Assembly (NCBI GenBank): GCA_042567505.1
Contig: JBHPJW010000006.1
Coordinates: 1,828 to 65,827, forward strand
Reading direction: 5' to 3'
Origin: Fibrobacterota bacterium
Lineage (GTDB): Bacteria; Fibrobacterota; Fibrobacteria; UBA11236; JADFYW01
DNA length: 64,000 nucleotides
Shown: positions 18,650-33,883 of the stretch, piece by piece
Layout of the letters: every line of letters starts with the position of its first letter
How positions within the stretch are numbered: position 1 is the first letter of the stretch
Notes under the pieces: model-generated
The model's database searches: none
What the model saw: only the letters and a program-made list of their open reading frames with translations
Told to the model about the DNA's origin: nothing
Translations under genes and position numbers: made by a program

Positions 18650-21600
18650 CTATTCCAGCGTAAAGGCGTCCAGGTTGCCTCCGGCGGTGCCGAATATCAC
18701 CAGACCGGCATCCTCGCTTATCCAGGGACCGGCGTCAGCGTCGTCAGAAGCGTCGCTGTAGGGCCAATTGGTCATGGTTGCGGCGCTGGAGGCGTTGTCG
18801 TCTATGGCATAATATCGCCCTCCCTGCCGGCCGAAGTACACAACGGTGTCCCAGGGCAGGGGAGCTGCGTTTACGGTATCCAGTGCGTCATAAGCCCAGT
18901 CGACAGTGGCCGCTATGCCTGAGCCGTTGTCGGATACTTTCTTCACGTTGTTTTCCACAGCAACGTAGATGTCTCCGGTGTTGGCGGTGTCGTCGGAGGT
19001 CTTTCCCATAATAAAGGCCGGGCCGGTGTTGGCGGTACCCAGGTTCACGGAAGTGGGAGACCATTTAAACGACCAGGTGGAAATAGTGATGGCGTACAGG
19101 CTGGAGGTGGCGGGTGTCACATAAAGCGTGTTCCTGTCCACCAGCAGGGGCAGCTGAACGTCTGTGCCCATGTTGATACCGGCGCCGGTCTGGGTTCCGT
19201 CGTAATCATACTTGTAGACATATCCGCCCCCGCCCGTGGCCGTGGCGACATATATCTCATCATTTTTTACCACGAGGTCCGCGCTCAGGCTGACGTCGGC
19301 CAGGTTCACCGGCCATCCGCTCATGGTGGAATCATTAATGTAATTATACCTTGTTATGTAGTTTGTATAGGTAATAAAAAACGTGGAGTCGTCCGGGCTG
19401 GCATAGGGATTGCCCGCCGTGGCGTTGAGATCAAGGGGCGTGAAGACTTCGGAAGAGGAAGAAATATCATCCTGCCTGCCTATCACGTATTCTCCGGCTG
19501 AAGCGAAGATCTTGTATTTGCTTACGTCCGTGTCGTAGACATAAGTGGGCATGTTGCATGCCCCGTATGCCGAGGTGGAAAAAAACCATTTCTGCTGCCC
19601 GTCGCTCAAATTATAGCTGAAGAGCCTGTTAACGCCGGATCCTGTGCCTATATAAATCCGGTTCTCGGTAATGGCCCCGCCCTGCACAGGGCCCAGGCCT
19701 GTCTTGCTCCATGCTGCGGCCACCATATTCTTGGTGTAATTGTCTATGGAAGCAGTGGAGTCGCCGTTTCCGATGGCGTCGAAGGCCCAGATTTTGAAGT
19801 AATACAAGGTGTTTATACTCAGTCCGGTGATGGTGGTGGAGGTGGTGGCAGCTGACGTCAGGGCGCCGTCGTCGCCATCGTCCCATTCCGTGCCGGAGCT
19901 GTCCCGCGCCTCTGCCAGGGTGGTGCCGTACCAGATCTCATAGTGATCAAAGTTCCGGTCCGTGGCTGCGGTCCACCCCAGGGTAACCGTGGTGCCCGTG
20001 GAGTCCGATCCCGCCAGGGAGGCCAGCCCGGCCGGAATTTTGGTATCGATGGCAAAAGTATCGCTTTCGGTGGTGTCCCTATTGGATGAGCCGTCGGTGG
20101 CTATCACCCGGACCAGGTACACGGTATCTGTGTTGGGCAGGTCCGTGTCGACGTCCCAGAGGATGGTATCATTTCCCGTGGCCGAGGTGTCTATGCCCGT
20201 GCCTATGTCCCCGGAAGTGGTTTCCAGGCTGTCATTGCTGTCCCAGCTGCCGCCGTAGAGCTTGTACTCCACTTTTATGTCTACCGTGCCGTCATTGGCG
20301 TCATCAACCTCATACCCCACTCTCACGCTGTCTGGGTGGTATTGGGCGGCATTGACATAAGGCGCGTCATCCCATCCCGTCACCACTGGATCATTTGTGG
20401 CCAGGGTGGTGGTGTTTACGTCAGTATCCGTGTCCTCATTGCCCATGGAATCCAGAGCCCATATCTTAAAGTAATAGGTGGAGGAGGGAATGAGCGAAGT
20501 GATATTGGTGGTGTCGGTGGCCATGGTGGCCAGGGATGCGTCATTGTCCTGGTCCCATTCCAGGGCCGTTCCGGTGCGGCCCTGGACGTCCGACTGGCTG
20601 GTGCCATACCAAATTTCATAATGGGAAAAATGGGATTCGCTGCTGGTAACCGTCCAGGAAAGCCCCACGTCGGTGGCATTTGTGGCCCCAACTGTCAGGC
20701 CGGCCAGTCCCGAGGGGTCCACCAGGTCTATATCAAAGCTGCCGGAGACCGTGGTGTCTGTATTGCTGTCGTCGTCGATGCAGTGGACCCTGACGTTATA
20801 GGCGGCGTCTGTGGTACCGGGGATCAAATCAGTGTATACGTCCCACTGCAGGGTGTCATCTATGCTCGCTCCCGTAGAAATGGTATCGTAATCCCCGGAA
20901 AGCGTGGACGGGTTTGTCCAGGAACAGGAGCTCGCCAGGCAGTATTGCAGCGAACAGACGGCCGTGGTATCGTTGTCATCGCTTACCTCATAGCCCACCC
21001 GGACCGTGCCGGAGTCTATTTGCTCGGCGTCAACCTGGGCGGCCTGGTCCCAGCCCGTGACCGTGGGCGCCGGGTCATCCAGGGTGGTTGTGCTGTCCCC
21101 TGTTATCGTAGCTTCGTTATTCATGGCATCCACGGCCCAGATTTTAAAATGATACTTGGTGGAAGGGCTCAAACCGGTAACAATCATGCTGGTGGTGGCT
21201 ATGTCCTTCATGCCGTTGTTGTTGTCCCCGTCCCATTCCAGGGCTGATCCGTTGCGGTTTTCCACTTCGCTTTTAGAAGAACCGTACCAGATTTCATAGT
21301 GGTCGAAATGTCCTTCATCGGATAATGCCGTCCAGGAAAAACTCACTGAAGTGCTTAAAGGATCCACCACGGCAAAGTCGGCCAGCCCCACCGGAGATTT
21401 GGTGTCCAGGCCGAAGGCCGCGCTCTGCGCGGTGTCGGCCAGCCCGCCGTCACTGGCGATGACGCGCACGTAATAGGTGCCGTCTATGGCATCGCCCAGT
21501 TGGTCACGAACGCTCCATCTAATGGTACGATCGGCGTACTCATTGGTGGCGTCCACTCCGGCGCCTATGTTCCCGGCGGTATCGGTGGCGGCGGTCCAGG

Positions 21601-24370
21601 ACCCCCCGTCCGGCTTGTATTGCAGGGTCACGGTAACTGTGGCGTCGTACTGGTCATAGACCTCGTACTGGATGGTGGCGGAATCCGTCTCGTCTTGCGA
21701 AGCAGTCACGGTACTGGTCGCCCCCAGTCCCGTGACCTGGGGAGGATAAAGCACATAGGTCACCTCCACGTACGGAACGTTGGCCCCTTCGGAAGCGTGG
21801 AAATTCTTATAGGATTCGTTGGTCCCTTCGGCATTGGAGATGAACACCATGCCATAATTGGCGCTATCGCCCGAGTGCCAGTCCTTAAAGGTCTGGGTTA
21901 TGTCCCAGGTATACCAGCCGGTGTTTCCCACCGAGGCGCTCACCACAGAGGCTGATCGGTCATTTCCCTCGGATCCTACGCCGGCCGTGGTCCAGGTGTT
22001 TTCATCGGCGTATTCGGTCCAGTTGCTCATGTTGGCCTGGTCCTGGCCCGTTCCAGTTCCCTCATTCCAGTCCCTCAATACCCTGTAGAGAGTGATGGTC
22101 TGGTTGGTGGCGCTGCCCACCGACCCGCAATAGGACTTAAATTCAGCCAGGAGAACAGTGGCCCCGGTGGGCACATCGCTGAAATCATTCACCTTCACCA
22201 GGGAGCGCATAACGTAGCTGCCGCCCCCGCCGGAACCGACCTTGCCTGCCGTGGCCCCGCCCCGCGTGGCGTCATTGCCGTAATTATAACTGGTATTTAA
22301 GTTTTCTATCATATTGTCATCAAGGTCGGTGAGCTGGACCACTGAATCCGCGTCTGTTTCGGCCAGGGTGGTGACGGCCGTATCGTTGATAGCCGTTTCG
22401 TTGCCGTAATCATCCATGGCCCATACCTGGAAGTAGTATGTTCTTTCGGCCAGCAGGCCGGTGATGGTGGTGGAAGTAGTGGCAGCGCTGGCAAGATTGC
22501 TGTCGTCCGGATCGTTGTCCCATTCCGCCGCGTTGCTGCGGTTCTGCACGCTGGTGGAATCTATGCCGTACCATACTTCATAATGATTGAAATTCCCGTC
22601 TGTGGCGGCGCTGGACCAGCTCAGGGCCACGGTGCTCATGGTGGTGTCGGTGGACGAGAGCGTGGCGGAAAAGGAGGGAACCTCGGTGTCTATGATGAAT
22701 TCCGCCGTAGCCGCCGTATCGATATTGCTGCCATCGTCCTCGGCCAGAATCCTGATGTAAGCAGTGGTGTCTGTTGAGCCGAACTGGGTGCGCACGTCCC
22801 AGTAGACAGAAAGGTCTTCCACCATGTCGACCGCGACTGAACCGGTGTCCCCGTCGGTATTGGCCTTGAAGTCGGCCCAGGCGGTCCAGGAGGCATCGTC
22901 CTTGAGTTTCATTTCCATGGTTACGGTGATGGCGGAATCGTCCTGGTCCCAGGCCTCGTATTTCACCTGTACGCTGTCGGTGTTTATCTGCACCGCCACC
23001 GGATCGACGATGGGGTCCCATCCCGTGATGAGCGGAACTACCGAGGTGAGGGTGTTGGCGCTGTCGGGATCCGTGGTCATTTCGTTGCCGGTTGAGTCTA
23101 TGGCCCATAACTTGAAATAATACTTGGTGTTGTATTCCAGCAGGATTACCTGGGCGCTGTCCGTGGAAATAGTGTTCATGACAGCGTAATCATCCGGGTC
23201 CCATACATACGCCGATACGTTCCTTTCTTCCACATTGGTGAGGTTGGTCCCGTACCAGATCTCATACTTGCTGAAATGGGCCTCGCTGGCCACGGTCCAT
23301 TCCAGGTCCACCGTAGAAAAACCCGAGTCCACCACAGTGAAATCCGCCAGGGAAACGGGGTCCCTGGTATCGATTACAAAGGAAGAGGTGCTTACCGTGT
23401 CCGCGTATCCCTCATCATCGGTGGCTATTGCCCTGACTATGTAGCTGCTGTCAATGCCGGACCCCAGCTGAGCATAGGCGTCCCATACAATGACCCGGTC
23501 CGAGGATGAGGAATTGGCTTCCACGCTGCCTATGTCCCCGGAGGTATTTGTGAGTGCAGTCCAGCCGCCGGCTCCGCCCACCTGGTACTGGGCCGTTATA
23601 GTCACATTATCATCGTCGCTGTCGCTGACTTCATAGGAAATATTTACCGTACTGGTGTCCTCCTGGTCTCCGGTGGCGTTGGCCCCGGAGCTGAGGCCGG
23701 TTATGACCGGCAGTACTCTATACCATACATCGAGGTATGGCTTGTTGGACCCGGCGTCCAGTGAGTTGAAATTCTTTCTCAGATCATCCGCTTCGGTGCC
23801 TTCCAGGATGAGCCCGTAATTAGTTAAATCGCCGTCAACCCAATCCTGAGCAGCTCCTGTCACCCGCCATTTGAACCAGGTGGAGGTGGCGTTTATCACC
23901 ACAGAGTCATAGGCCGAGGCCCCGCGGTCAGTCCCGGCCGTGGCGGCGCCGCTTGCATCCCAGGTGGAAACGTTATGTTTGTTTGAGTTCCAGCTGACCG
24001 CGCCGTCCTGTTCGGCGCCGTCTGCGCTGCCTTCCAGCCAGTCCTGCAGCAGGTGGTATACCCAGATTGATTCAGGGCTGGCCACATCTTCGCCTGAGCA
24101 ATACAGTGCCAGGTCAGCACTGTCTATGACGGCATCGCTGGGCAGGGTGTCGTCTATGGGGAAATTGATGACAATCCGGTAGGGTCCCCTATTCGCTAAA
24201 GCCTCCGTGGTTATGTATCCCAGATACAGGGTGGAGGAGCCCCCATAGTTGTCATCTGCGGATTTATCATTGATATGGGCGTCATTTCCAATGGTAAACT
24301 GCTTGTAAGTGGCCTGGCACAGGCTGCCTAATATGGCAATCATAAGCCCTGTTTTTAAAACCTTATGCAT
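18650..24370 (-). CDS. giant (1906 aa) secreted modular surface protein: two copies of a ~150-aa N-terminal module, at least 5 alternating Ig-like/FN3-like domain pairs, C-terminal PQQ-like beta-propeller
   Basis: Signal peptide. FN3-like repeats anchored by H(F/Y)xxYEIWYG...YYFK(I/L)WA(I/V)D. Second repeat type anchored by (V/I)TGWD...YEV.D.D...Y.VR(I/V)(I/H)A. Module with LY/VYxxLxDW(N/L)EG...NYG(L/M)...PY(L/V)(D/E)V occurs twice. C-terminal WxF/DGxxKW propeller blades. Long internal DNA direct repeats. Confidence 0.8.
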   Translation of the reverse strand: MHKVLKTGLMIAILGSLCQATYKQFTIGNDAHINDKSADDNYGGSSTLYLGYITTEALANRGPYRIVINFPIDDTLPSDAVIDSADLALYCSGEDVASPESIWVYHLLQDWLEGSADGAEQDGAVSWNSNKHNVSTWDASGAATAGTDRGASAYDSVVINATSTWFKWRVTGAAQDWVDGDLTNYGLILEGTEADDLRKNFNSLDAGSNKPYLDVWYRVLPVITGLSSGANATGDQEDTSTVNISYEVSDSDDDNVTITAQYQVGGAGGWTALTNTSGDIGSVEANSSSSDRVIVWDAYAQLGSGIDSSYIVRAIATDDEGYADTVSTSSFVIDTRDPVSLADFTVVDSGFSTVDLEWTVASEAHFSKYEIWYGTNLTNVEERNVSAYVWDPDDYAVMNTISTDSAQVILLEYNTKYYFKLWAIDSTGNEMTTDPDSANTLTSVVPLITGWDPIVDPVAVQINTDSVQVKYEAWDQDDSAITVTMEMKLKDDASWTAWADFKANTDGDTGSVAVDMVEDLSVYWDVRTQFGSTDTTAYIRILAEDDGSNIDTAATAEFIIDTEVPSFSATLSSTDTTMSTVALSWSSAATDGNFNHYEVWYGIDSTSVQNRSNAAEWDNDPDDSNLASAATTSTTITGLLAERTYYFQVWAMDDYGNETAINDTAVTTLAETDADSVVQLTDLDDNMIENLNTSYNYGNDATRGGATAGKVGSGGGGSYVMRSLVKVNDFSDVPTGATVLLAEFKSYCGSVGSATNQTITLYRVLRDWNEGTGTGQDQANMSNWTEYADENTWTTAGVGSEGNDRSASVVSASVGNTGWYTWDITQTFKDWHSGDSANYGMVFISNAEGTNESYKNFHASEGANVPYVEVTYVLYPPQVTGLGATSTVTASQDETDSATIQYEVYDQYDATVTVTLQYKPDGGSWTAATDTAGNIGAGVDATNEYADRTIRWSVRDQLGDAIDGTYYVRVIASDGGLADTAQSAAFGLDTKSPVGLADFAVVDPLSTSVSFSWTALSDEGHFDHYEIWYGSSKSEVENRNGSALEWDGDNNNGMKDIATTSMIVTGLSPSTKYHFKIWAVDAMNNEATITGDSTTTLDDPAPTVTGWDQAAQVDAEQIDSGTVRVGYEVSDDNDTTAVCSLQYCLASSCSWTNPSTLSGDYDTISTGASIDDTLQWDVYTDLIPGTTDAAYNVRVHCIDDDSNTDTTVSGSFDIDLVDPSGLAGLTVGATNATDVGLSWTVTSSESHFSHYEIWYGTSQSDVQGRTGTALEWDQDNDASLATMATDTTNITSLIPSSTYYFKIWALDSMGNEDTDTDVNTTTLATNDPVVTGWDDAPYVNAAQYHPDSVRVGYEVDDANDGTVDIKVEYKLYGGSWDSNDSLETTSGDIGTGIDTSATGNDTILWDVDTDLPNTDTVYLVRVIATDGSSNRDTTESDTFAIDTKIPAGLASLAGSDSTGTTVTLGWTAATDRNFDHYEIWYGTTLAEARDSSGTEWDDGDDGALTSAATTSTTITGLSINTLYYFKIWAFDAIGNGDSTASIDNYTKNMVAAAWSKTGLGPVQGGAITENRIYIGTGSGVNRLFSYNLSDGQQKWFFSTSAYGACNMPTYVYDTDVSKYKIFASAGEYVIGRQDDISSSSEVFTPLDLNATAGNPYASPDDSTFFITYTNYITRYNYINDSTMSGWPVNLADVSLSADLVVKNDEIYVATATGGGGYVYKYDYDGTQTGAGINMGTDVQLPLLVDRNTLYVTPATSSLYAITISTWSFKWSPTSVNLGTANTGPAFIMGKTSDDTANTGDIYVAVENNVKKVSDNGSGIAATVDWAYDALDTVNAAPLPWDTVVYFGRQGGRYYAIDDNASSAATMTNWPYSDASDDADAGPWISEDAGLVIFGTAGGNLDAFTLE

Positions 24371-24434: not shown

Positions 24435-24695
24435 TTAGACCTTGAATTCGATATTCAGTCTGGTGCCTGTGGCTTCGGCCACCCGTATCAGCGTGCTGAC
24501 AGTGTTTCCACCGCCTCCATTATGTTCCATCCTGGAAACCACTTGCTGGGTGATCCTCAGGCGTGAAGCCAGTTCTTCCTGGGTCATCCCAACCATCAAG
24601 CGTACTTTCTTGATGAGGTTTTCCGTTTCCGGTACGACGGTTCCGGCGGATCGCTCTGTTTTGGGTTCTTCCAGGGTTGTTTCGGGATTAATCAT
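24435..24695 (-). CDS. XRE-family helix-turn-helix transcriptional regulator
   Basis: HTH motif MVGMTQEELASRLRITQQVVSRMEHN; lies 65 bp upstream, same strand, of the giant surface-protein gene. Confidence 0.8.
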   Translation of the reverse strand: MINPETTLEEPKTERSAGTVVPETENLIKKVRLMVGMTQEELASRLRITQQVVSRMEHNGGGGNTVSTLIRVAEATGTRLNIEFKV

Positions 24696-24739: not shown

Positions 24740-25095
24740 AATGAGTCCGGTGATTGAAATTGAAGATGCCAAGCCGGTCCCGGCCTGAAGTCTCAGATAA
24801 GACAGCGGCCGGCTGTATATGAGCAAAGGTCCAGGCACCGGTTGGCAAAAAGTTATGGTTATAAAGATTTCGTACTGTGAGAAGGTTGAAGGCCAACCGG
24901 CGCCGGAGGCACAATGCAGATAAGACAGCGGCCGGCTGATTATCTGGGAAAAGCCGGACATCGGTTGGCAAAAAGATATGGTTATAAAAAGTTCGTACTG
25001 TGAGAAGGTTGAAGGCCAACCGGCACCCTAAGAACAATGCAGATAAGACAGCGGCCGGCTGTTTATGAGCAAAGGTCCGGACACCGGTTGGTTTT
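24740..25095. repeat. ~3.5 tandem copies of a 123-bp repeat (each with an internal 9-bp-stem hairpin ccggttggc...gccaaccgg) immediately upstream of the XRE gene
   Basis: Units begin cagataagacagcggccggctg at 24794, 24917 and 25040 (~85% identity); partial unit at 24740-24793; inverted copy of the core (agccggccgctgtc) at 25278-25291. Confidence 0.85.
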
Positions 25096-25667
25096 AAGAA
25101 GCTGATAAAAACTGACTTGACACGGATAGTATGAAGCGGATGGCAGAGCAGGTCTCTCGCCATCAGGAACCGGGATTTTTGTGGATTGAATGGAAAGCGA
25201 ATGCTACCGAAGATTTTTAACCTTACAGGTACTGCAAGTTTTGTGAGCACACGGAAAAACGTGTGATAAAAGAGAAAGCCGGCCGCTGTCATACTTTATA
25301 TCTGTCGATCTTTTTAGATCGGAAAAATTATGTCTATTTATTTCAAGTATACAGCAAATAGGCTGTATGTGCCACGTAATAAGTATATTTATGATATTCA
25401 TCATAATGTAATTATAAGAACAGTTTATTGCTTTCTCAAAACTTTGCTTTTTTGTGTTATAATTCGGGATTGTTATACATCAAAGAACACCAAAAAACAA
25501 ATAAATTCAAATATCAATAATATTGGTTTTAGGCCTGTGATTACGAACCTGGTTGAGGTAAATCCAGCTGATGCTTATCTACTGGGCCTTGGACAGACCG
25601 GCAAAAGGGAAGGTTTTTTGTGGAATTAAATTGGAACGTACTTAATCAGGGATGATTAAAGGCAGTT

Positions 25668-25746: not shown

Positions 25747-27228
25747 TTATTCGTACTGGGCCTCGCCGCCGATTTCATTGAGGAAATCCCCCACCTTTTC
25801 ATCACTTATCTCTTCCTCCTGGATCTCGTCGGGGGGATCATGCCTGGGTGATTCCAGGTTTTCTTCCGCAGACCGGGCTTCCTCCATATCAGAGATCATT
25901 CGCAAAGGAATTGCGGCTGTCCTGGGCTGGGCCTGACCGTTCTTAACAATGTAGGGGGTGATGAAGATTATCAAGTCTTTTTTAACGATGTTCTTTGAGG
26001 TATGTTTGAACAGAATTCCCAGTAAGGGGATGTCTTTTAAAAATGGAATCCCCCTTTCAGTTTCATTTTCAACCTTGGATGTCAGGCCCCCGATCACTAC
26101 CGTTTCGCCGTCATTTACCACCACTGTAGTTTTTGCCTCTGTAGTGGTTACAATGGGCCCGCGGGTAATCGCGTCAGTGCGGGCCTCGCTTCTCTGTGGA
26201 GACAAGTCGAGAATGACCCTGTTGTCATTAGTGATATGGGGAGTGACAATAAGTTCGATTCCCGCGTCCACGAATTCTGTGGTGGAGTTTAGATTCGCGT
26301 CCAACTTGTTGAAGGGCCGCCGTTCGCCGATAAAAATCCTGGCTTCGGTATTATCAAGCGTGGTTATCTGCGGTTTGGCAACCACTTCGCCTTTTCCCTC
26401 TGAAAGGAGGTGTTCAATGGAGGCGCCCAGCCTGCCGTCGAGCAGCCTGGCTGCCACGGCCAGAGTGGGATTGGCCACTCTTCCCGGAGAAGATCTGCCC
26501 AGAACCGCTCCTGATTGGCTGGCTGAAGGAACATCATTCAAATCAGGTGCCGGCGCTCCGGTTCCATAACCCCAGTTGATTCCCAATTCCTGGGCCGCGT
26601 CTGAACTTGCCTCGATTATCTGCGCTTGAATGTGTACTTGATAGGTTTCAACGTCAAGGTTTATGATGGCTTTTTTTATCTCGCCTAATTTTGATTGAAT
26701 GTCGGTTATAATAAAGGCGTTGGACATCTCCACAATAGCCAGTTTCCCCCTTTCAGACAGGAGACCGGTTACGGCGGTTTGCAGATCTTCCACCTTGGTG
26801 TGTTTGAGGTGGATTATCTCCCTAATCAGCTGAGCCTCTTTTTCCTGGGAGTTGAATTCCTTAAGGGACTGCACGTAGATGTATTCGTCCTCAATGGAAT
26901 AGGTAAGGCCGTACATCTGGCACAGCACCTCCAGAGCCTGCTTCCAGGTTTTGGCCGTCAGCGTCAGGTTCAGACGGCCGGAAAGCGTGGGAGACAGGAC
27001 GATGTCTACCTTCCCTGCGGCGGATATGGCCTTGAAAGCTGAGCGAATATCCAGGTTGGGGAAGTAAAAATCCCTGGCAACATTCTGAGAAGATGCGGCC
27101 GGCCCTGGTTGGTTGGTATTATCCGGGTTCTGACCCGAAGGAGGTTCGCTCTGATCCTGGCCTGAGAGCAGGCCGCCCATCAGGAACAACGTGAGAATTA
27201 TTCTTTTCAGTACGTCCCGGTGCTTCAT
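25747..27228 (-). CDS. pilQ: type IV pilus secretin PilQ (GspD/PilQ secretin family, short N-terminus)
   Basis: Secretin C-domain VVIGGLTSKVENETERGIPFLKDIPLLGILFKHT...LIIFITPYIV; signal peptide; last gene of pilMNOPQ. Confidence 0.9.
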   Translation of the reverse strand: MKHRDVLKRIILTLFLMGGLLSGQDQSEPPSGQNPDNTNQPGPAASSQNVARDFYFPNLDIRSAFKAISAAGKVDIVLSPTLSGRLNLTLTAKTWKQALEVLCQMYGLTYSIEDEYIYVQSLKEFNSQEKEAQLIREIIHLKHTKVEDLQTAVTGLLSERGKLAIVEMSNAFIITDIQSKLGEIKKAIINLDVETYQVHIQAQIIEASSDAAQELGINWGYGTGAPAPDLNDVPSASQSGAVLGRSSPGRVANPTLAVAARLLDGRLGASIEHLLSEGKGEVVAKPQITTLDNTEARIFIGERRPFNKLDANLNSTTEFVDAGIELIVTPHITNDNRVILDLSPQRSEARTDAITRGPIVTTTEAKTTVVVNDGETVVIGGLTSKVENETERGIPFLKDIPLLGILFKHTSKNIVKKDLIIFITPYIVKNGQAQPRTAAIPLRMISDMEEARSAEENLESPRHDPPDEIQEEEISDEKVGDFLNEIGGEAQYE

Positions 27229-28865
27229 GGTAGCATCCTTTCCTTTGGAGATTTAAGCTTCAGGGTATAGAAACGGAACACCCCGTATTCTGATATTTCA
27301 AATACGACTTTATGCCGTGTAATCTGAGTGACTTTGCCATTGGATATGGAATCGCCTTTTCTCAGAGCAATTGATATGGCAGGTTCTGTTCTATGCTCTA
27401 ACACGGCCAGCGGGTCTTTGGCATTCCAGATAATCCCTACCAGTTTCATCTGGTCGAGGATTATGTCTCTGTCCGAAAGCGGCGCATGTTCCACAGGGAT
27501 AAAAGGATCACGGCGCCCAAAGCTGGTATACTGGACCTTTTTTCTCTCCCTCTCGCGCTTGCGTTTTTCCTGTTCCTCAATCCTTTTTTTCTCAGCAAGT
27601 ATCCTGGCCATTTCCTGTTCTCTTTCTATTCTTTCCTGTTCAGCCTTGCGCTTTTCTTCCAGGCGGAGCTTTTCTTTTCGCTTCAAATTGAGGATCTCTT
27701 CCTCCTTTTTCCTTTTTTCCTCCCCAGCTTTTTTCCTGGCCAATTTCTCCTCTTTCTTTTTCGCCTCTTCTTCGGCCCTTTGTTTGGGTTCCAGTTCTTT
27801 TTTTTTTAATGCTTCTTCCTCCGCCCTTTGTTTGGCTGCCAGTTCTTTTTGTTTTCTGGCTTCTTCTTCAGCCTTTTGTTTCGCGGCTAATCTCATTTCT
27901 TCAGCTTCCCTCTCCGCTTGTTGTGTTTTTATGCTCTTTCTTTGTTCAGGAGTTAGTTTGTCTTCATATGCCAGTAGGTTGTTCTTGACCCAGCCGGTAT
28001 CCTTCCCAGTGTACACTTGAAACCAGTCCTTTTTTCTGCTGATTCCGGTGACTTTTTCGCCGGCATGTATTGTTCTGATTGTTTGCGAGCCCGTTCCTGG
28101 AGCATCTCTCAGTTTTATCCTGTTGCTGAGAGCGATATAGTCCCGGTTTTCTTCAGAAATAGAGAACGTCTTACCCGGCATGGTTTTTAATCGGGATGTT
28201 TTTCGGTCCATGGCAGTTCCAAGGTCAAAAGCGCTTTCCGTCCCCAGGACATCCTCCAGTTTCACTGAGTCTTCTGCCTGGATCTCCCGGGGATTGCCGG
28301 TATCAGGCGTTTCCACGGTGGGGGGCGGTAATTGGATGGACTCATCGGGATTCTCATTCTGGGCGAGGAGTATATGGCTCGATCCTTCAATTTCTGAAAT
28401 GGGCTGGGTGGAGGGAGAAACCGTCCAGTGGAATTTGTCCCCCCTTGATTTTCCCAACGCGAGGTTGATGGTCCCGGCATTGGATTTTGAGGCCTTGTAT
28501 TTGCTGCTTCGGTTCAGGGTTCGAAGGCTGAAACCCACACTCAGAAAACCACGAACCTTGCCGTGGTTTTTCCCGATGACTTTGCGGACGGCCATATGTG
28601 ACACATAGGGGTTGTTTCTGGCGATGGGATAGTTGCCGTAGATGATACTGCTCCCGGTTTCCAGAAAGTTAATGGAATAAATTCCGGTTTCAGCCTCGAA
28701 ATGCTGGAAAAACCTGGGGATGCGCGAGGCCAGCGAATCCTTCCGGAAAGAAAATTCCACAAACACCTGGTCGCCGTCGCTGGCCAGGCGCACTTTTTCG
28801 AGAATAGCGCCGCGAAGCGGCGCCGTGAGGCACGCCAACAGGAAGAATAAGGCGCCGGGTTTCAT
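27225..28865 (-). CDS. PilP-like pilus assembly protein fused to AMIN-like N-domain, SH3b domain and ~130-aa K/E-rich coiled coil
   Basis: Position between pilO and pilQ. C-terminal RRDPFIP...LVGIIWN...GKVTQITRHKVVF resembles PilP core. SH3b-like segment IKLRDAPGTGSQTIRTIHAGEKVTGISRKKDWFQVY...GWV. Long AEEEA/KK/RKAEQER repeats. 4-nt overlap with pilQ. Confidence 0.6.
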   Translation of the reverse strand: MKPGALFFLLACLTAPLRGAILEKVRLASDGDQVFVEFSFRKDSLASRIPRFFQHFEAETGIYSINFLETGSSIIYGNYPIARNNPYVSHMAVRKVIGKNHGKVRGFLSVGFSLRTLNRSSKYKASKSNAGTINLALGKSRGDKFHWTVSPSTQPISEIEGSSHILLAQNENPDESIQLPPPTVETPDTGNPREIQAEDSVKLEDVLGTESAFDLGTAMDRKTSRLKTMPGKTFSISEENRDYIALSNRIKLRDAPGTGSQTIRTIHAGEKVTGISRKKDWFQVYTGKDTGWVKNNLLAYEDKLTPEQRKSIKTQQAEREAEEMRLAAKQKAEEEARKQKELAAKQRAEEEALKKKELEPKQRAEEEAKKKEEKLARKKAGEEKRKKEEEILNLKRKEKLRLEEKRKAEQERIEREQEMARILAEKKRIEEQEKRKRERERKKVQYTSFGRRDPFIPVEHAPLSDRDIILDQMKLVGIIWNAKDPLAVLEHRTEPAISIALRKGDSISNGKVTQITRHKVVFEISEYGVFRFYTLKLKSPKERMLP

Positions 28866-28867
28866 CG

Positions 28868-29452
28868 TTATTTAGACGTGAATGTTTTCAATTGAAATTT
28901 TGTGTCAATGGTATTGATGATATCATCAATTTGAGATACGTTTTTTACCCTTTTGACTGACGCGTTCTGCATAATATGCACATTGGTGATGGCAGTGGGG
29001 TAGGTAAAGTTCGCTATTTCTTGAAAAAAGGCCCCCAGTCCGTGATAACCGGACTCCACCTTGATAGCGTAATTATTTTCCATGTAAAATTCCTTTTCCA
29101 TGGCATTCAACGGCTCAAAAAGCACCGGTACCACTGAGGACCTTCTCGACGCCCTGGAAAGATCCTGCAGACGCTTGGGAATGAAGTCCTGGTCCGGGAA
29201 CATTTCCTTCAGCCTGATAAAGTCTTCTGAAGCCTGTTTTATCTCCCGCTGCAGTTCTCCTTTTCTTTGGTTCTGTGTCATTATCTTGCTCAACTCAGTT
29301 TTCTTATTGTTGAGCACGCTTTCCAATCGCTGGCTCTCCTCGTTATAGGGAATCCACTCCCTGGACCAGAACAGATACATCAGGTAGAACACAAGAGCCA
29401 TGCACGCTCCGGCGTATATCAGCATTTTGGTTTTCAGGGTAAGTTGTTTCAT
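28868..29452 (-). CDS. pilO: type IV pilus assembly protein PilO
   Basis: N-terminal TM helix, coiled coil, then PilO-like periplasmic core; operon position. Confidence 0.75.
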   Translation of the reverse strand: MKQLTLKTKMLIYAGACMALVFYLMYLFWSREWIPYNEESQRLESVLNNKKTELSKIMTQNQRKGELQREIKQASEDFIRLKEMFPDQDFIPKRLQDLSRASRRSSVVPVLFEPLNAMEKEFYMENNYAIKVESGYHGLGAFFQEIANFTYPTAITNVHIMQNASVKRVKNVSQIDDIINTIDTKFQLKTFTSK

Positions 29453-30069
29453 GAAACCACGTCAGCAACCCGGGCTGACGGTCTTTCCGCTCCCAGATTT
29501 AAATTGACCTTAATTTTCAAAGTAAAGATGAATGCGTCTGGTTTTATTGATCCGTCCACCTGAATTTTATCCAGACTGACGTTCAGGAAATAATTGTCTT
29601 TTTCCAAGGCTATCATGTAAACTGCGACCTCGGAAAATAAATGGGACGTTCCAATTAAAAGCAAGTCTCCGGCCTGCTCATTTTCCTGCTTTATTTCCTT
29701 GATCCAGGTATGGGGCGGCACTGTTTTGCTCAATCCCTCCAGTATGCGGACCCATACCTGTTTGTTGAAGCTTATGCTTTTTAATGAACGGTTCTTGGCG
29801 TTTTTTTCCTGCAGCAACCGCTCCAGCTTTTTGATTTGAGACAGGATTTTTTTATTGGCCTTGATGTCGGCTTCAATGGATGCCAATTTTTCTTTATTGT
29901 CTTTCAGGTCGCTGTGAATGGTGGAAATACCAATCAAGTAGGCCAGCAACGTGATTAACACCACGAGACTGGGAACCACTATTTTAGTATCCAGCAGGTA
30001 GGAATAATCTTTCTTGATTTTCCGTTCCTCAACCGGAAGCAGGTTTATTTCTATTAATTCAGACATCAA
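29449..30069 (-). CDS. pilN: type IV pilus assembly protein PilN
   Basis: Conserved N-terminal INLLP motif (ELIEINLLPVEERK), single TM, coiled coil. Confidence 0.8.
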   Translation of the reverse strand: MMSELIEINLLPVEERKIKKDYSYLLDTKIVVPSLVVLITLLAYLIGISTIHSDLKDNKEKLASIEADIKANKKILSQIKKLERLLQEKNAKNRSLKSISFNKQVWVRILEGLSKTVPPHTWIKEIKQENEQAGDLLLIGTSHLFSEVAVYMIALEKDNYFLNVSLDKIQVDGSIKPDAFIFTLKIKVNLNLGAERPSARVADVVS

Positions 30070-31148
30070 AACCGCCTCAAAGCCAATCCGGTGGCAACCG
30101 TTAAAGTAGTGGAGATGTCTTGAGGGACTGCCCCGACAAATTTTTTCCGGTCATAAGCCATAGTACCCAGCGGGTCAGCGATTTCTACCTGGGTTTCGTG
30201 CCTTTCCGCCAGCAGGTCCGGGAGGTTTTCTATGCAGGCGCCTCCCCCGCAGATGATTATTTTGTCAATGGCCAGATTGTCCTCAGATGACTGGAAATAA
30301 CTGAATGCCAGATCAAGTCCTATGCTGAGCTCTTCCACGGAAATTTCTATGCAGCGCTGGACGGTATCATCGTTGTAATTGCCCCGTTCTCTCCCCTTCA
30401 GGATGGCCATGGCTTCCCACTCTTCCACCTGGAGTTCTTTCTGCAGAGACTGGATAAAATAACTGCCGGCCGTTGGAATGTCCCTGGTAGAATGATATGC
30501 GCCATGCTTTATGAAAGTCAGATTGGTGACGTTTTCTCCTATGTTTACCAGGCACAAGACCTTTTTTTTATCTTCCGGAGAAGCTGTGAAGAAAAAGGCG
30601 TTGGCAACAGCGAAAGTGTCCACATCAATATTGACCGGATCCAGTCCCGCATCCCGGATCAGTGACAGGAATGGCTGCATTACTTTTAATCTGGCCGCAA
30701 CCAGGAGGACTTCCATGTCTCCTGTGACGGGATTTTTATCAAGGATTTTGTAATCGAGCTGAATGTCTTCCACATCAAAAGGGCTGTGCCTTCCCGCTTC
30801 CATGAGAATGAGTTCATCGTCTGATTCGAGTTTGGAGGATTTCAATCGAATACGGTCAGCAATAACCCCATATGACCATGAAAGGGCGAAATTCACTTTT
30901 TTTACCTTTCCCGCCGGATCGGTTTTATTGATGAGAGAAGTTATGGCGTGCAGGAGTTCGTCCCGGTTCTTGATTTCACCGCTTTCCATGGTCCCTTCTT
31001 TGAAAACGTGAATTCCGGCACCCAAAAGGACAGGACCTTTTGTCCCATGTTTGATATAAACGATTTTAACGCTGTGATTACCAATGTCGAGGCCGACACT
31101 GACGGGATCACCTCCAAACAAACGGAGAACTCGCTTCTTTATTTCCAA
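30066..31148 (-). CDS. pilM: type IV pilus assembly protein PilM (actin-like ATPase fold)
   Basis: Phosphate-1 motif VGLDIGNHSVKIVYI; FtsA/PilM-like length and operon position. Confidence 0.85.
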   Translation of the reverse strand: MEIKKRVLRLFGGDPVSVGLDIGNHSVKIVYIKHGTKGPVLLGAGIHVFKEGTMESGEIKNRDELLHAITSLINKTDPAGKVKKVNFALSWSYGVIADRIRLKSSKLESDDELILMEAGRHSPFDVEDIQLDYKILDKNPVTGDMEVLLVAARLKVMQPFLSLIRDAGLDPVNIDVDTFAVANAFFFTASPEDKKKVLCLVNIGENVTNLTFIKHGAYHSTRDIPTAGSYFIQSLQKELQVEEWEAMAILKGRERGNYNDDTVQRCIEISVEELSIGLDLAFSYFQSSEDNLAIDKIIICGGGACIENLPDLLAERHETQVEIADPLGTMAYDRKKFVGAVPQDISTTLTVATGLALRRF

Positions 31149-31435
31149 AGACTTTTTACCCAGTTACTTTTAACCGTATTTGATTCTACAGCCTTAAGTT
31201 ATTTATGTCAAGTTAATATAAATCTTTAATAGTTATGGCAGATACAAATATCGTGTAATATTTATTTTTAATGAATTACATAAGTATTATATTGTGATTC
31301 TAGTTATAGAGGATACTATATGTTGTGGGGATCTGACGTAATTATAATCTCATAGAGATATGAGAATAAATTTTCCGGGATCCCTCTCACAGGGAGGGAA
31401 AGTTCTCTTTTTAAGGTCTGGCAGGGGTGAAAGAT

Positions 31436-32649
31436 CTAGCGGAACTGGGAATCCATCCGGTTTTTTTCAAATACAAAACGGACTATTTTTTCCTGAGTAG
31501 CTGTCTCGATTTCACAGAATTTCAATCGGTGGATGAATACATTCGCGTCATTCTTTTTTAACGCGTCATAATTTATGACCTCGGACAGGATGTTTTTCAA
31601 AGAAGAACCGGGCAGGTCAAAATTCAGAGACAAAGTAGATCCCGAACTTAGGCCGCTGGACAGACGGAGACAAATGCCGCCTCCGCTGATATCCATGATT
31701 CGGCCTTCCAGTACCGTTCCATTGGGTAAATCATCTTTATCAGGGCTTTCATCTTTTCCCCCGGTCTTTTTGACCAAGGTTGCTTTGCAAGGGATATTAA
31801 CGTCTACCCGCACCCAGTTCCGTAATTGCTTTCTCTGGAGATCGTGGGTGTGTTCTAATACAATACTGCCGTCTCGTATTTCCTTTACCCGGATTTTTAG
31901 ACGGTACTCAGCGTCACCTGGTCGGATAAACCAGACTGGCAGACTTTGATTCTGATTTATCTGCCCAATTGGCAGGTCTTTACCCTCCAGAGACCACACT
32001 CTTTCGTCTATTTCCTTAATGGTGGCTTTTATTGACATATCGCTTTTTCTGTTTCCAATGGTAACAGGCATTCCGGGATTGAGCTGTTTCGTGCTGGTCA
32101 GGTGAGTTTCAACTGGAAGTCTGGAGTAATTCAGTTTTTTCCTTAATCGGGACAGGAGGTCGTACGGCATCAGCTCAGAGCTGTCTTTTTTCTCCAGGGT
32201 GTTCAGATAGGCGTCGAGGCTTTCCTCATAGACCGTTGGAGAGTTGAAAATCGTATCGGCCTGAAGCTGCTTTCCCGCTTCCACTATATTTTTAAGAAGT
32301 TTCGTTTCCTTGGGCGTGAGACCTCTTTTTGATACCAGTTCTCCAAAATTCTGCCAACTCAGTTCAATTTTTTCCCGTCTCTGTTTATCGGATTTTAGGA
32401 TTTCCCATGCCACAAAAAAACCGAGAATGAAAATAGCGAGAGAACCCAGCAGAATTATCAAAATGGGGCTGGCGGATGGGAAAGCTTTGCGGATATTGTC
32501 ATAGACACTATCATCCGCCGGGAGAGATATTGCCAGGCCGCTTACCAGGAGGATAATCCTGGCAAGCAGGTATTTTATGTTTTCTTTTTCTTCCACTTCT
32601 GGAACTTTTTTAGAATGAATATAAAAATTAATCAAATTTCGATAACACA
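31436..32649 (-). CDS. membrane-anchored PilZ-domain protein (predicted c-di-GMP receptor) upstream of pilM
   Basis: Two N-terminal TM helices; C-terminal PilZ motifs RKQLRNWVRVDV (RxxxR) and DISGGG (DxSxxG); start taken at internal Met MCYRN. Confidence 0.65.
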
Positions 32650-32705
32650 TTATTTTACTAAATGAAAGATTGTTTACCGCCCTCCGAAATGATAAAATAA
32701 GAAAA

Positions 32706-33020
32706 ATGAAAAAGATACCCCTTTCCGAAGTCCAGGATGGAATGATCCTGGCTAAACCTGTTATCGGTTCCGACGGCAAAATACTTTTGGCCGAAGGTGA
32801 AGTACTCAAGGCAAAAATGGCCATGCGTCTTTCGAATTGGGGTGTGGCTATCGCTTACATTCGTGAGGAAGGCGAGGAAGGAAGTTCTGATGAGGATGGG
32901 GAACAGAAGGCGGCAAGGTTGAAAATGCTGGAAAATACTTTTAAGGGAGTATTGGATAATCCCAATATGAAAACCATCTATGTTGCCATAAAAAAACATA
33001 TCCAGGAAAAAGAGGCATGA
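32706..33020 (+). CDS. small DUF3391-like protein (N-terminal module usually fused to HD-GYP/HD domains)
   Basis: MKKIPLSEVQDGMILAKPVIGSDGKILLAEGEVL resembles the DUF3391 consensus; 4-nt ATGA overlap with the downstream HDOD gene. Confidence 0.45.
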   Translation: MKKIPLSEVQDGMILAKPVIGSDGKILLAEGEVLKAKMAMRLSNWGVAIAYIREEGEEGSSDEDGEQKAARLKMLENTFKGVLDNPNMKTIYVAIKKHIQEKEA

Positions 33021-33883
33021 GCAACCAGGTAGAAAACCTGAGAAACATAACTCAGAGGTTGACAGATCTGCCGACTCTTCCCACTGTGGTTGCAAAAATC
33101 GCCATGTTGATGCAGAATCCCAGGACTTCCGCTAATGAAGTAGGGCAAGCAATAACCAATGACCAATCTCTGACTTCAAAGACGCTTAAACTGGTTAATT
33201 CAGCCTTTTACGGATTCCCCGGGAGGATCAGTACGGTTACCCATGCCATAGTAATTCTGGGGTTTACCACCGTGAAAAATATTGTTTTAACCGCCTCTAT
33301 TTTTGACGCAATAGGGAAGAAGGAAGGTGCCTCGCAGGGTTTTAACATTAAGGCTTTCTGGCTTCATTCAATCGCTACGGGAGCGACCGCAAAAGTACTG
33401 GCTGAATTCCTGAAATCAAAGAAAACCGAGGAAGCCTTTATCGGAGGTCTGTTGCATGACCTCGGAAAAGTAATCTTAAGCCATTTTGCCAGGGATGAAT
33501 TTGAGGCTGTCCTCCAGTACAGGGACGAGCATGATTGTCTGCTCTATCAAGCGGAAAAAGCAATTTTAGAAATTTCGCATCAGGAACTGGGCGGATGGAT
33601 TGCAGACACGTGGAACCTGCCGAAGGATTTGGCTGCAGTTATTCAGTATCATCATACGCCCAATTCTGCTGGAATATACAAGGAAATAACCAGTATCATT
33701 CACCTTGCAGACATACTTACCCGGGCTCTCGGGAGCGGTTCAGGTGGTGATAACCGAATTCCAGTGGTGGATGATTCGGTCTGGGAAAACCTGAAGATGG
33801 GCAGTCTGGATTTGCCCAAGCTGCTTGCCAGAGCCGAGGATGAGATTGAAAAGGCGAGTATCTACCTGCAGGAGGCAATGTAG
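33017..33883 (+). CDS. HDOD-domain signalling protein
   Basis: HDOD consensus LPTLPTVVAKIAMLMQNP...LKLVNSAFYGFP...FWLHSIATGATAKVLAEFL...GGLLHDLGKVIL. Confidence 0.8.
   Translation: MSNQVENLRNITQRLTDLPTLPTVVAKIAMLMQNPRTSANEVGQAITNDQSLTSKTLKLVNSAFYGFPGRISTVTHAIVILGFTTVKNIVLTASIFDAIGKKEGASQGFNIKAFWLHSIATGATAKVLAEFLKSKKTEEAFIGGLLHDLGKVILSHFARDEFEAVLQYRDEHDCLLYQAEKAILEISHQELGGWIADTWNLPKDLAAVIQYHHTPNSAGIYKEITSIIHLADILTRALGSGSGGDNRIPVVDDSVWENLKMGSLDLPKLLARAEDEIEKASIYLQEAM

Follow-up and report, generated by a model that had tools for sequence, protein, structure and literature searches.

PilP is ordinarily an inner-membrane lipoprotein of ~170–180 aa. In the 64-kb stretch of Fibrobacterota DNA analyzed here (the window), the pilP slot of a pilMNOPQ operon is occupied by an uninterrupted ORF of 546 aa, and we asked whether its product is a PilP and what the additional sequence might do. 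The original prediction had described a fusion of an AMIN-like domain, a bacterial SH3 segment, a charged coiled coil and a PilP core, next to an unusually short PilQ.

The locus and the PilP core

The ORF has pilO on one side and pilQ on the other; pilM, pilN, pilO and pilQ all lie on its strand and each matches its own Pfam family. The features of the locus are as follows.

25747–27228, minus strand: pilQ, a 493-aa secretin (Pfam and NCBIfam TIGR02515)
27225–28865, minus strand: long PilP ORF, 546 aa
28868–29452, minus strand: pilO (PF04350, E = 4e-14)
29449–30069, minus strand: pilN (PF05137, E = 5e-10)
30066–31148, minus strand: pilM (PF11104, E = 3e-47; TIGR01175 above cut-off)
31183–31211, minus strand: candidate sigma-70-like promoter upstream of pilM (TTGACA-17-TAGAAT, 11/12), the best match of a consensus scan alone and no proof of function
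31436–32824, minus strand: PilZ-domain gene directly upstream of pilM (PF07238, E = 4.6e-10)
33017–33883: HDOD gene, in synteny with the PilZ gene and the operon

Read from the sequence, a gap of 2 nt separates pilO from the 546-aa ORF, and the stop codon of the ORF shares 4 nt (ATGA) with the start of pilQ. The long-pilP gene is translationally coupled to pilQ. The ORF, its flanking pil genes and the overlap were all recovered as first described. The order HDOD-PilZ-pilMNO-longP-Q is kept in distant relatives (L024 and L025); the operon order holds in every relative with a long enough contig, and both the 4-nt overlap and the short PilQ are lineage-wide. Neither the window nor any of ~20 related loci contained a further PilP-like ORF or a further secretin, which leaves no separate canonical pilP beside another pilQ there.

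The protein was divided into the following segments.

28806–28865, minus strand: signal peptide, residues 1–20, MKPGALFFLLACLTAPLRGA (read from the sequence)
28416–28805, minus strand: N-terminal β-sandwich, residues ~21–150 (AF2 model and family conservation)
28131–28415, minus strand: acidic linker rich in Pro, Ser, Thr and Glu, residues 151–245, net charge −10 (composition)
27960–28130, minus strand: SH3b domain (Pfam SH3_3, PF08239), residues ~246–302
27537–27959, minus strand: ER/K-type charged helix, residues 303–443, ~134–141 aa (composition and charge pattern)
27766–27881, minus strand: 48-nt tandem repeat within the helix (16 aa, KQ[KR]AEEEA...), 2.4 copies (TRF score 162, 83% matches)
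27225–27536, minus strand: PilP core, HR β-sandwich, residues 444–546, with a YxSFGRRDPF motif; its stop codon lies within the pilQ start overlap

The C-terminal ~100 aa form a PilP/HR β-sandwich. When the single sequence was searched against PDB sequences, the top match was M. xanthus PilP (3jc8, E = 0.018); a four-sequence profile returned this protein as its sole match (E = 7e-4, with RDPF aligned), and a second profile recovered it again (E = 1e-3). The AF2 model of the core, built like the others used here from a very shallow alignment (4–5 sequences), has a pLDDT of ~85. The best seven Foldseek matches to it in the PDB are PilP from three species (3jc8, 2lc4, 2y4y and 2ivw) and the HR domain of GspC (3oss), all with a probability of 1.00; below rank 7, the probability falls sharply to ≤0.54. 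Pfam PilP (PF04351) gave sub-threshold matches in 13 of 18 relatives (best E = 4.9e-4) and in 10 of 29 members of a second set. An isolated core scored 22.1 bits against a cut-off of 25.6, no match in the family reached the gathering score, and the 546-aa window protein itself had no match to Pfam PilP at E ≤ 1. The RDPF-containing, PilP-like C terminus that had been proposed is thus upheld by sequence, by profile and by fold.

A trivial explanation would be that mis-assembly or read-through has fused a gene for an SH3/coiled-coil protein to a short pilP. Two database records might be read in this way: one relative (L007) has its N-domain in another frame, and in a second (L001), a 119-aa call is preceded by stop codons. 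Against this, at least 17 independent metagenome-assembled genomes (MAGs), which come from different studies and include contigs of up to 3.75 Mb, encode the protein with its domains in the same order and no break in the ORF; the N-domain and the PilP core are always found together; and an identical protein has been deposited at NCBI as MFC1584363.1. Such conservation across genomes refutes a fusion artefact, to which we assign almost no probability. The long-PilP architecture is conserved across Fibrobacterota, with family sizes of 450–790 aa, and a comparison of related genomes, as suggested at the outset, found a long PilP paired with a short AMIN-free PilQ throughout the lineage. We are highly confident that the type IVa pilus (T4aP) machine of Fibrobacterota has its PilP orthologue in the 546-aa protein, with the extended architecture described here.

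The identical NCBI entry is named "SH3 domain-containing protein", and public annotation of the family offers only this or "hypothetical" protein. A published inventory (PMC4704652, Table 4) records PilM, PilN, PilO and PilQ in all Fibrobacteres genomes and has no row for PilP. Our search of the literature on PilP with SH3, AMIN or Fibrobacter found no prior description. With this assignment, the PilP missing from Fibrobacterota pilus gene inventories is now identified.

The N-terminal extension

The N terminus of the protein is a short signal peptide that, judged from its sequence, is probably cut by signal peptidase I. The window protein has a cysteine at position 12 (LLAC), which its closest relatives do not conserve; across the aligned family, residues 1–45 of most members are free of Cys and contain A-x-A↓HELK-type sites instead. 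A lipoprotein signal was rejected as a family trait because the Cys is unconserved, and the lipobox that defines canonical PilP has no conserved form in the long-PilP family, a point on which the original prediction had not remarked. An N-terminal transmembrane anchor like that of GspC or GspB is also absent.

The module that follows was modeled by AF2 with nine strands (pTM 0.67; pLDDT 70, or ~78 over 120 residues), in agreement with the β-rich region originally described. It is present in 18/18 family members. Searched alone, the first 311 aa of the protein returned no homologues, and relatives were recovered only by a family profile and exhaustive HMMER searching. Among 1.84 billion representatives, the module was found in only 34 clusters (50% identity), always at the N terminus. 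Some relatives carry a second β-module that is paralogous to the first (hhalign 83%, E = 9e-6), giving one or two copies per protein. The N-module is a new, narrowly distributed domain family, a β-sandwich private to the long-PilP lineage.

The original prediction likened this region to the AMIN domains normally found on PilQ, and a highly diverged AMIN, moved from PilQ to PilP, would account for several observations. The β-sandwich is of like size (~110–120 aa, 8–9 strands), like AMIN on PilQ it is present singly or as a tandem pair, its pattern of hydrophobic strands is AMIN-like by eye, and the PilQ of the operon has no AMIN. The direct searches nevertheless speak against it. Pfam matched AMIN or AMIN-like in none of the 18 + 29 family proteins (E ≤ 1/0.1), and the N-domains and the second module searched in isolation were equally negative at E ≤ 10; PF11741 did recognize the positive control, AmiC of E. 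coli, at E = 2e-21. Compared with the AmiC AMIN domain by hhalign, the N-domain scored 0.1% and the second module 0.2%, which is a weak test given a single-sequence template. A profile of the N-module found nothing among PDB sequences at E ≤ 10, and no AMIN structure was among the best 50 Foldseek matches in the PDB, whose TM scores were ≤0.35. Bet v 1/START-like Foldseek matches (TM ≤ 0.2) were treated as noise. Sequence and profile comparisons reject an AMIN identity, and the fold gives it no support; we regard it as improbable.

The secretin itself is as short as had been noted. PilQ (493 aa) consists of N0 (STN/GspD_N0), one Secretin_N domain (N1) and the Secretin domain, with no AMIN detected by Pfam; the same AMIN-free architecture was found in 13/13 relatives tested. 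LysM, the mark of TsaP, had no Pfam match at E ≤ 1. AMIN is not universal among T4aP secretins (PMC10653833). The idea that the peptidoglycan function of PilQ has moved to its partner does not hold as a transfer of domains, the N-module being not detectably AMIN. At most, the AMIN domains of PilQ may have been replaced functionally by unrelated modules, the novel β-sandwich and SH3b.

The acidic linker behind the β-sandwich is probably disordered. AF2 pLDDT is <40 from residue ~140 onward, the region contains alignment gaps and insertions, and it is the site at which relatives insert the second β-module.

The predicted SH3-like segment was confirmed by a Pfam SH3_3 match above cut-off (residues 250–298, E = 6.6e-10, 39.5 bits against 27, profile positions 3–53 of 54). 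SH3_3 was matched in 11/18 and 16/29 relatives of the two sets. The domain is missing from some members (L017 and P0030), so it is not essential to the core role of the family. Matches of the segment to polyubiquitin were ignored as sums of 5.9-bit matches over repeats. The nearest solved SH3b domains, 2kq8 (E = 0.019) and 2krs, belong to a cell-wall hydrolase and an enterotoxin, and SH3_3 domains are usually associated with cell-wall enzymes. Binding of a cell-wall ligand is predicted from this usual context only.

The charged helix and possible roles of the extension

Residues 303–443 contain 27% Glu, 23% Lys and 13% Arg (62% in all), with just two Pro and one Gly. The extreme charge that had been remarked upon is real, but the label of coiled coil was rejected: hydrophobic residues occupy ≤18% of a/d positions in any heptad register, and opposite charges are instead paired at i/i+4 (z = +4.25 against 2000 shuffles) and i/i+3 (z = +3.25), with i/i+7 depleted (z = −2.3). 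This pattern is that of an ER/K-type single α-helix; its helicity is predicted from sequence, and it would be ~20 nm long if fully helical. The 16-aa repeat motif recurs at helix positions 20, 36 and 52, and the 48-nt tandem repeat that encodes it indicates that the spacer grew by duplication.

Such a helix was initially seen as a molecular ruler across the periplasm. That reading is weakened by the relatives, in which the helical or low-complexity spacer after SH3 varies six-fold (37–226 aa) while their PilQ proteins are of similar size (474–545 aa). In Fibrobacterales members, the charged helix is located elsewhere along the protein. A long spacer always separates the N-domain from HR, though its position relative to SH3 shifts. 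A spacer of such variable length points to a tether rather than a ruler, and we consider it likely that the identity, the architecture and a tether role, taken together, are correct.

In the model that we favor, the HR domain would dock on the N0 ring of PilQ, by analogy with other PilP, GspC and GspB proteins, and a conserved charged segment just ahead of RDPF may contact PilN/PilO. The long helix and linker would form an extended tether that holds SH3b and the β-sandwich away from the N0 ring. The likeliest target of these two modules would be the peptidoglycan/outer-membrane side, where they could anchor or position a secretin that itself carries no domain for binding peptidoglycan. That the extension works as a cell-wall anchor is a tentative proposal, to which we give somewhat less than an even chance.

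The same parts could be arranged in the opposite sense. The N-module, SH3 or both might take the place of the lipid anchor by attaching to the inner membrane or to the PilN/PilO platform, with the ~20-nm helix spanning the periplasm so that HR reaches the N0 domain of a short secretin near the outer membrane. Such a bridge preserves the polarity of canonical PilP, which has its N terminus at the inner membrane and its C-terminal HR at N0. It would suit a PilQ with only N0 and one N1 and a spacer that is always present between N-domain and HR, and a protein with no lipobox would need some other membrane-proximal attachment. The six-fold variation of the spacer beside a nearly constant PilQ argues against it, as does the cell-wall association typical of SH3_3; moreover, the conserved segment before RDPF is the better candidate for binding PilNO, by analogy with P. 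aeruginosa PilP. We think an inner-membrane bridge unlikely, at perhaps a one-in-four level of belief.

A stronger form of the anchoring model would hold that Fibrobacterota have rebuilt the tie between secretin and envelope, a non-lipidated PilP carrying a phylum-private peptidoglycan- or envelope-binding β-module and SH3b on the end of a ~20-nm ER/K helix in place of PilQ AMIN domains or a TsaP ring. We hold this form to be doubtful as it stands; if true, it would mean a new family of envelope-anchoring domains and the first description of a single-α-helix spacer from a bacterial trans-envelope machine. No principle of pilus biology is overturned, and what the locus offers is a testable hypothesis for the anchoring of AMIN-free secretins. 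Type IV pili have been linked to the attachment of Fibrobacter to cellulose, which gives the architecture of the machine some applied interest for fibre degradation.

Comparison with known systems

Long PilP shares with canonical PilP (P. aeruginosa, N. meningitidis and M. xanthus; PF04351; 2lc4, 2y4y, 2ivw and 3jc8 chain P) the HR fold, an RDPF-type motif before the core, the location of its gene between pilO and pilQ, and an N0-bearing partner secretin. It differs in being three to four times larger (546 aa; family 450–790 aa), in having no conserved lipobox and so not being a lipoprotein, in scoring below the Pfam gathering threshold, and in the addition of a novel β-sandwich, SH3b and the ER/K helix.

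T4aP secretins are known to be anchored to peptidoglycan by the AMIN domains of PilQ and by the LysM protein TsaP. The role proposed for long PilP, to tether the secretin at the cell wall or set its position there, would be functionally analogous to theirs or to that of the C-terminal extension of GspB/OutB, and the β-modules are in tandem in some relatives. In contrast to both, long PilP has no AMIN or LysM homology, and its modules are on PilP rather than on the secretin or a separate ring protein.

The charged segment resembles ER/K single α-helices and TolA domain II-type periplasmic helices in its richness in E/K/R (A/K/E in relatives), its i/i+4 salt-bridge pattern and its lack of a heptad core. 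NCBIfam gave a weak similarity to full-length TolA (E = 0.2); the likeness is one of compositional and structural class, not homology. SH3 and the helix that follows also match TIGR04211 ("SH3_and_anchor") over profile positions 6–152 of 198 (E = 2e-8, 34 bits, below the cut-off of 65), but long PilP has a PilP core in place of the C-terminal membrane anchor.

Among HR proteins of type II secretion systems (T2SS), GspC has a homologous HR domain (3oss_C, Foldseek rank 6) and is also multi-domain. In GspC, however, HR precedes a PDZ domain or coiled coil, the protein has a transmembrane anchor, and the gene belongs to a T2SS operon; the neighbours of long PilP are pilM, pilN, pilO and pilQ, not gsp genes. 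In Dickeya T2SS, GspB/OutB is an HR-domain protein that binds the secretin N0, and a separate region of it binds peptidoglycan (PMC9239104). By analogy, it is the closest functional precedent for an HR domain and a wall anchor in one polypeptide. This proteobacterial protein has an N-terminal transmembrane helix and a short C-terminal peptidoglycan-binding extension, with no SH3b, β-sandwich or long helix, whereas the extra modules of long PilP are N-terminal and their peptidoglycan binding is putative. Long PilP shows that T4aP systems, like T2SS with GspC and GspB, can join the PilP/HR docking module to large periplasmic extensions.

A PilP-fold protein in the P slot of a pilus operon

The predicted open reading frame at 27225-28865 (minus strand) is present and encodes a protein of 546 aa. 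On the same strand it is the fourth of five consecutive genes, in the order pilM, pilN, pilO, 546-aa ORF and pilQ.

Genes of the pilus operon
30066-31148, minus strand, pilM (Pfam PilM_2, 3e-47; the NCBIfam pilM model agrees)
29449-30069, minus strand, pilN (Pfam PilN, 5e-10)
28868-29452, minus strand, pilO (Pfam PilO, 4e-14)
27225-28865, minus strand, 546-aa ORF
25747-27228, minus strand, pilQ (Pfam Secretin, 2e-46; the NCBIfam PilQ model agrees)

The pilO stop codon lies 2 nt ahead of the pilP ATG, and the expected 4-nt overlap with pilQ is seen in the sequence as an ATGA common to the pilP stop and the pilQ start. The strongest promoter-like site is upstream of pilM. The genes form a single, tightly coupled pilMNOPQ-type operon, with the 546-aa protein in the P position.

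The window protein gave no Pfam PilP match, even at E ≤ 1. When its last 113 aa were compared with all PDB sequences, the best match was M. xanthus PilP (3jc8, E = 0.018). A four-sequence profile matched PilP alone (E = 7e-4), aligning the GRRDPF motif of the core with GKRDPF of PilP, and a 14-sequence profile returned PilP again. AF2 predicts a six-strand core for residues 436-546 (pLDDT ~85). The best seven Foldseek matches in the PDB were PilP (M. xanthus, P. aeruginosa, N. meningitidis) and the homologous HR domain of GspC, all with probability 1.00; subsequent matches were at ≤0.54. Sub-threshold Pfam PilP matches occur in 13 of 18 full-length relatives (best 4.9e-4). The predicted C-terminal PilP domain is thus borne out, and by fold, specific sequence similarity and gene context the window protein belongs to the PilP/HR superfamily. 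With the core in isolation, one search gave 22.1 bits where Pfam PilP requires 25.6, which accounts for annotation pipelines overlooking the domain. An identical NCBI entry, MFC1584363.1, is named "SH3 domain-containing protein [Fibrobacterota bacterium]", and relatives are annotated as "hypothetical". In a phylogenomic survey of the Fibrobacteres, PilA/B/C/D/M/N/O/Q/T are listed for all genomes and a PilP row is missing (PMC4704652). Literature searches found no earlier description of this long PilP architecture.

In the window, a PilZ-domain protein (31436-32824, minus strand) is encoded directly upstream of pilM and an HDOD protein (33017-33883, plus strand) is divergently placed; both are also syntenic with the pilus operon in a distant relative (locus L024, 3497-5572), a hint that c-di-GMP may control this pilus. 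A ComEC-type DNA-uptake channel with Competence and metallo-beta-lactamase domains (8719-11298, minus strand) lies ~15 kb from the operon, and the pilus could serve natural competence in addition to adhesion.

Modules preceding the PilP core

The N-terminal region had been likened to an AMIN domain, a resemblance that the searches do not support. Pfam AMIN and AMIN-like models had zero matches among 18 + 29 family proteins, and zero at E ≤ 10 with isolated domains; E. coli AmiC, the positive control, scored 2e-21. An 18-sequence profile of the N-domain reached 0.1% against the AmiC AMIN domain in hhalign and had no match among PDB sequences. AF2 models residues 19-160 as a beta structure of nine strands (pLDDT 70, pTM 0.67); Foldseek found nothing significant for this model in the PDB, and AMIN structures were absent from the top 50. 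An exhaustive HMMER search of 1.84 billion representatives located the N-domain in only 34 clusters, N-terminal in every case and in host proteins nearly all of 450-770 aa. In several relatives a paralog of this domain is inserted as a second module (hhalign 83%, E = 9e-6, 116 columns); it likewise lacks an AMIN signal. The absence of AMIN signal, the narrow distribution and the paralogous second copy therefore indicate a family-private beta-module present in one or two copies. It is a new small domain family joined to PilP.

The SH3b domain was predicted correctly: SH3_3 (PF08239) scores 39.5 bits over residues 250-298 (cut-off 27) and recurs in most relatives. It is absent from locus L017 (4113-5660), which has 6 aa where other members have 57, and from the related protein P0030, which has a Pro/Lys-rich linker in its place. 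These natural SH3-less variants are possible deletion controls for SH3 function.

By composition, residues 303-443 are 27% E, 23% K, 13% R and 12% A; Pro occurs twice and Gly once. Hydrophobic residues at a/d positions do not exceed 18% in any heptad register. Compared with 2000 shuffles, pairs of opposite charge are more frequent at i/i+4 (z = +4.25) and i/i+3 (z = +3.25), and less frequent at i/i+1 and i/i+7. This pattern is of the ER/K single alpha-helix type, not the coiled coil originally proposed. Helicity of the segment is predicted from this signature; a helix of ~134 residues would be about 20 nm long. A 48-nt tandem repeat inside it (2.4 copies, 27766-27881) shows that the segment expanded via duplication.

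Distribution and genomic surroundings

A core-profile scan of species-representative genomes returned 19 loci, all in Fibrobacterota MAGs, three of them labeled "Bifidobacteriales". These three (L003, L017 and L021, "uncultured Bifidobacteriales bacterium") carry a Fibrobacterota-type pilMNO-longP-Q operon with 47-63% identity to the window core, and the label is probably wrong. On complete contigs the core-bearing ORF is 516-789 aa long, and N-domain and core co-occur without exception. There is exactly one ORF of this kind per related locus and one in the 64-kb window. Relatives keep the operon order, the 4-nt overlap and the small size of PilQ (474-545 aa); PilQ is AMIN-less as predicted, with N0, one Secretin_N and Secretin in 13/13 tested. 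In a divergent member that is flagellated, the gene order on a 3.75-Mb contig (ERZ25039538 contig_2699) is HDOD-PilZ-pilM-pilN-pilO-(610 aa)-secretin.

Two loci have irregular sequences. In L007 (634-2759) a frameshift or an assembly error has put the N-domain out of frame with the remainder of long PilP. The contig start of L001 (1-796) has stop codons ahead of a 119-aa gene call and a poly-Phe reading resembling an inverted K-rich stretch, and may be chimeric.

Locus L001 has aspS and phoH immediately after pilQ. In the window, pilQ and aspS (16742-18523) are separated by a gene for a secreted 1906-aa protein, an HTH gene and a repeat region, an arrangement suggestive of an insertion. The 1906-aa protein (18650-24370, minus strand) has at least four fibronectin-III repeats and units of ~300 aa that recur; its gene has a G+C content of 0.53-0.58, against 0.44-0.49 around it. 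Three tandem copies of a 123-nt unit (24794-25162; 100/84/60% identity; no Rfam match) occupy a non-coding-looking stretch between the XRE-type HTH gene (24435-24695) and pilQ. PilQ itself ends in a ~60-aa acidic low-complexity tail past the secretin domain (residues 430-493, …EENLESPRHDPPDEIQEEEISDEKVGDFLNEIGGEAQYE), which no profile covers.

Anchor or bridge

The gene in the PilP slot thus encodes a PilP-fold domain, and its neighbor encodes a secretin with N0 and no wall-binding domain. HR domains are established to bind secretin N0 in PilP, GspC and GspB (PMC9239104), so the long PilP core (residues 444-546) would be expected to dock on PilQ N0 (residues ~53-120). The likeliest PilN/PilO contact, judging from P. 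aeruginosa PilP, would be the conserved stretch ahead of RDPF. The extension may be a tether bearing the beta-module and SH3b. We tentatively favor a reading in which these two modules bind the peptidoglycan or outer-membrane side and anchor or position the secretin; long PilP would then act in trans like PilQ AMIN, TsaP or the OutB C-terminal extension. The main alternative, which we consider rather unlikely, keeps canonical polarity: the N-terminal modules would stay at the inner-membrane platform and the helix would bridge to the N0 ring of the short secretin.

Under either reading, the proposal that the helix is a precise molecular ruler is weakened by the SH3-to-core spacer, which varies from 37 to 226 aa. 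It is E/K/R-rich in the window protein and its closest relatives, and elsewhere Ala/Lys/Glu-rich with Pro/Gly breaks; in Fibrobacterales-type members the charged helix instead separates the N-domain from the second module. Constant features are the N-domain, the core with its conserved pre-RDPF segment and, at some point between the two, a long spacer of low complexity or helical character. Most signal peptides lack Cys and have A-x-A|HELK sites, and the family is therefore not lipidated.

The architecture and non-lipidated state of long PilP would be unexpected to pilus specialists, yet easy to accommodate, and the protein provides a testable handle on the anchoring of AMIN-less secretins. 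Canonical PilP has a lipoprotein anchor and single-domain size, whereas long PilP has neither. In working mode it would be closest to GspB/OutB, which combine HR with a wall anchor, although it is not a member of that group.
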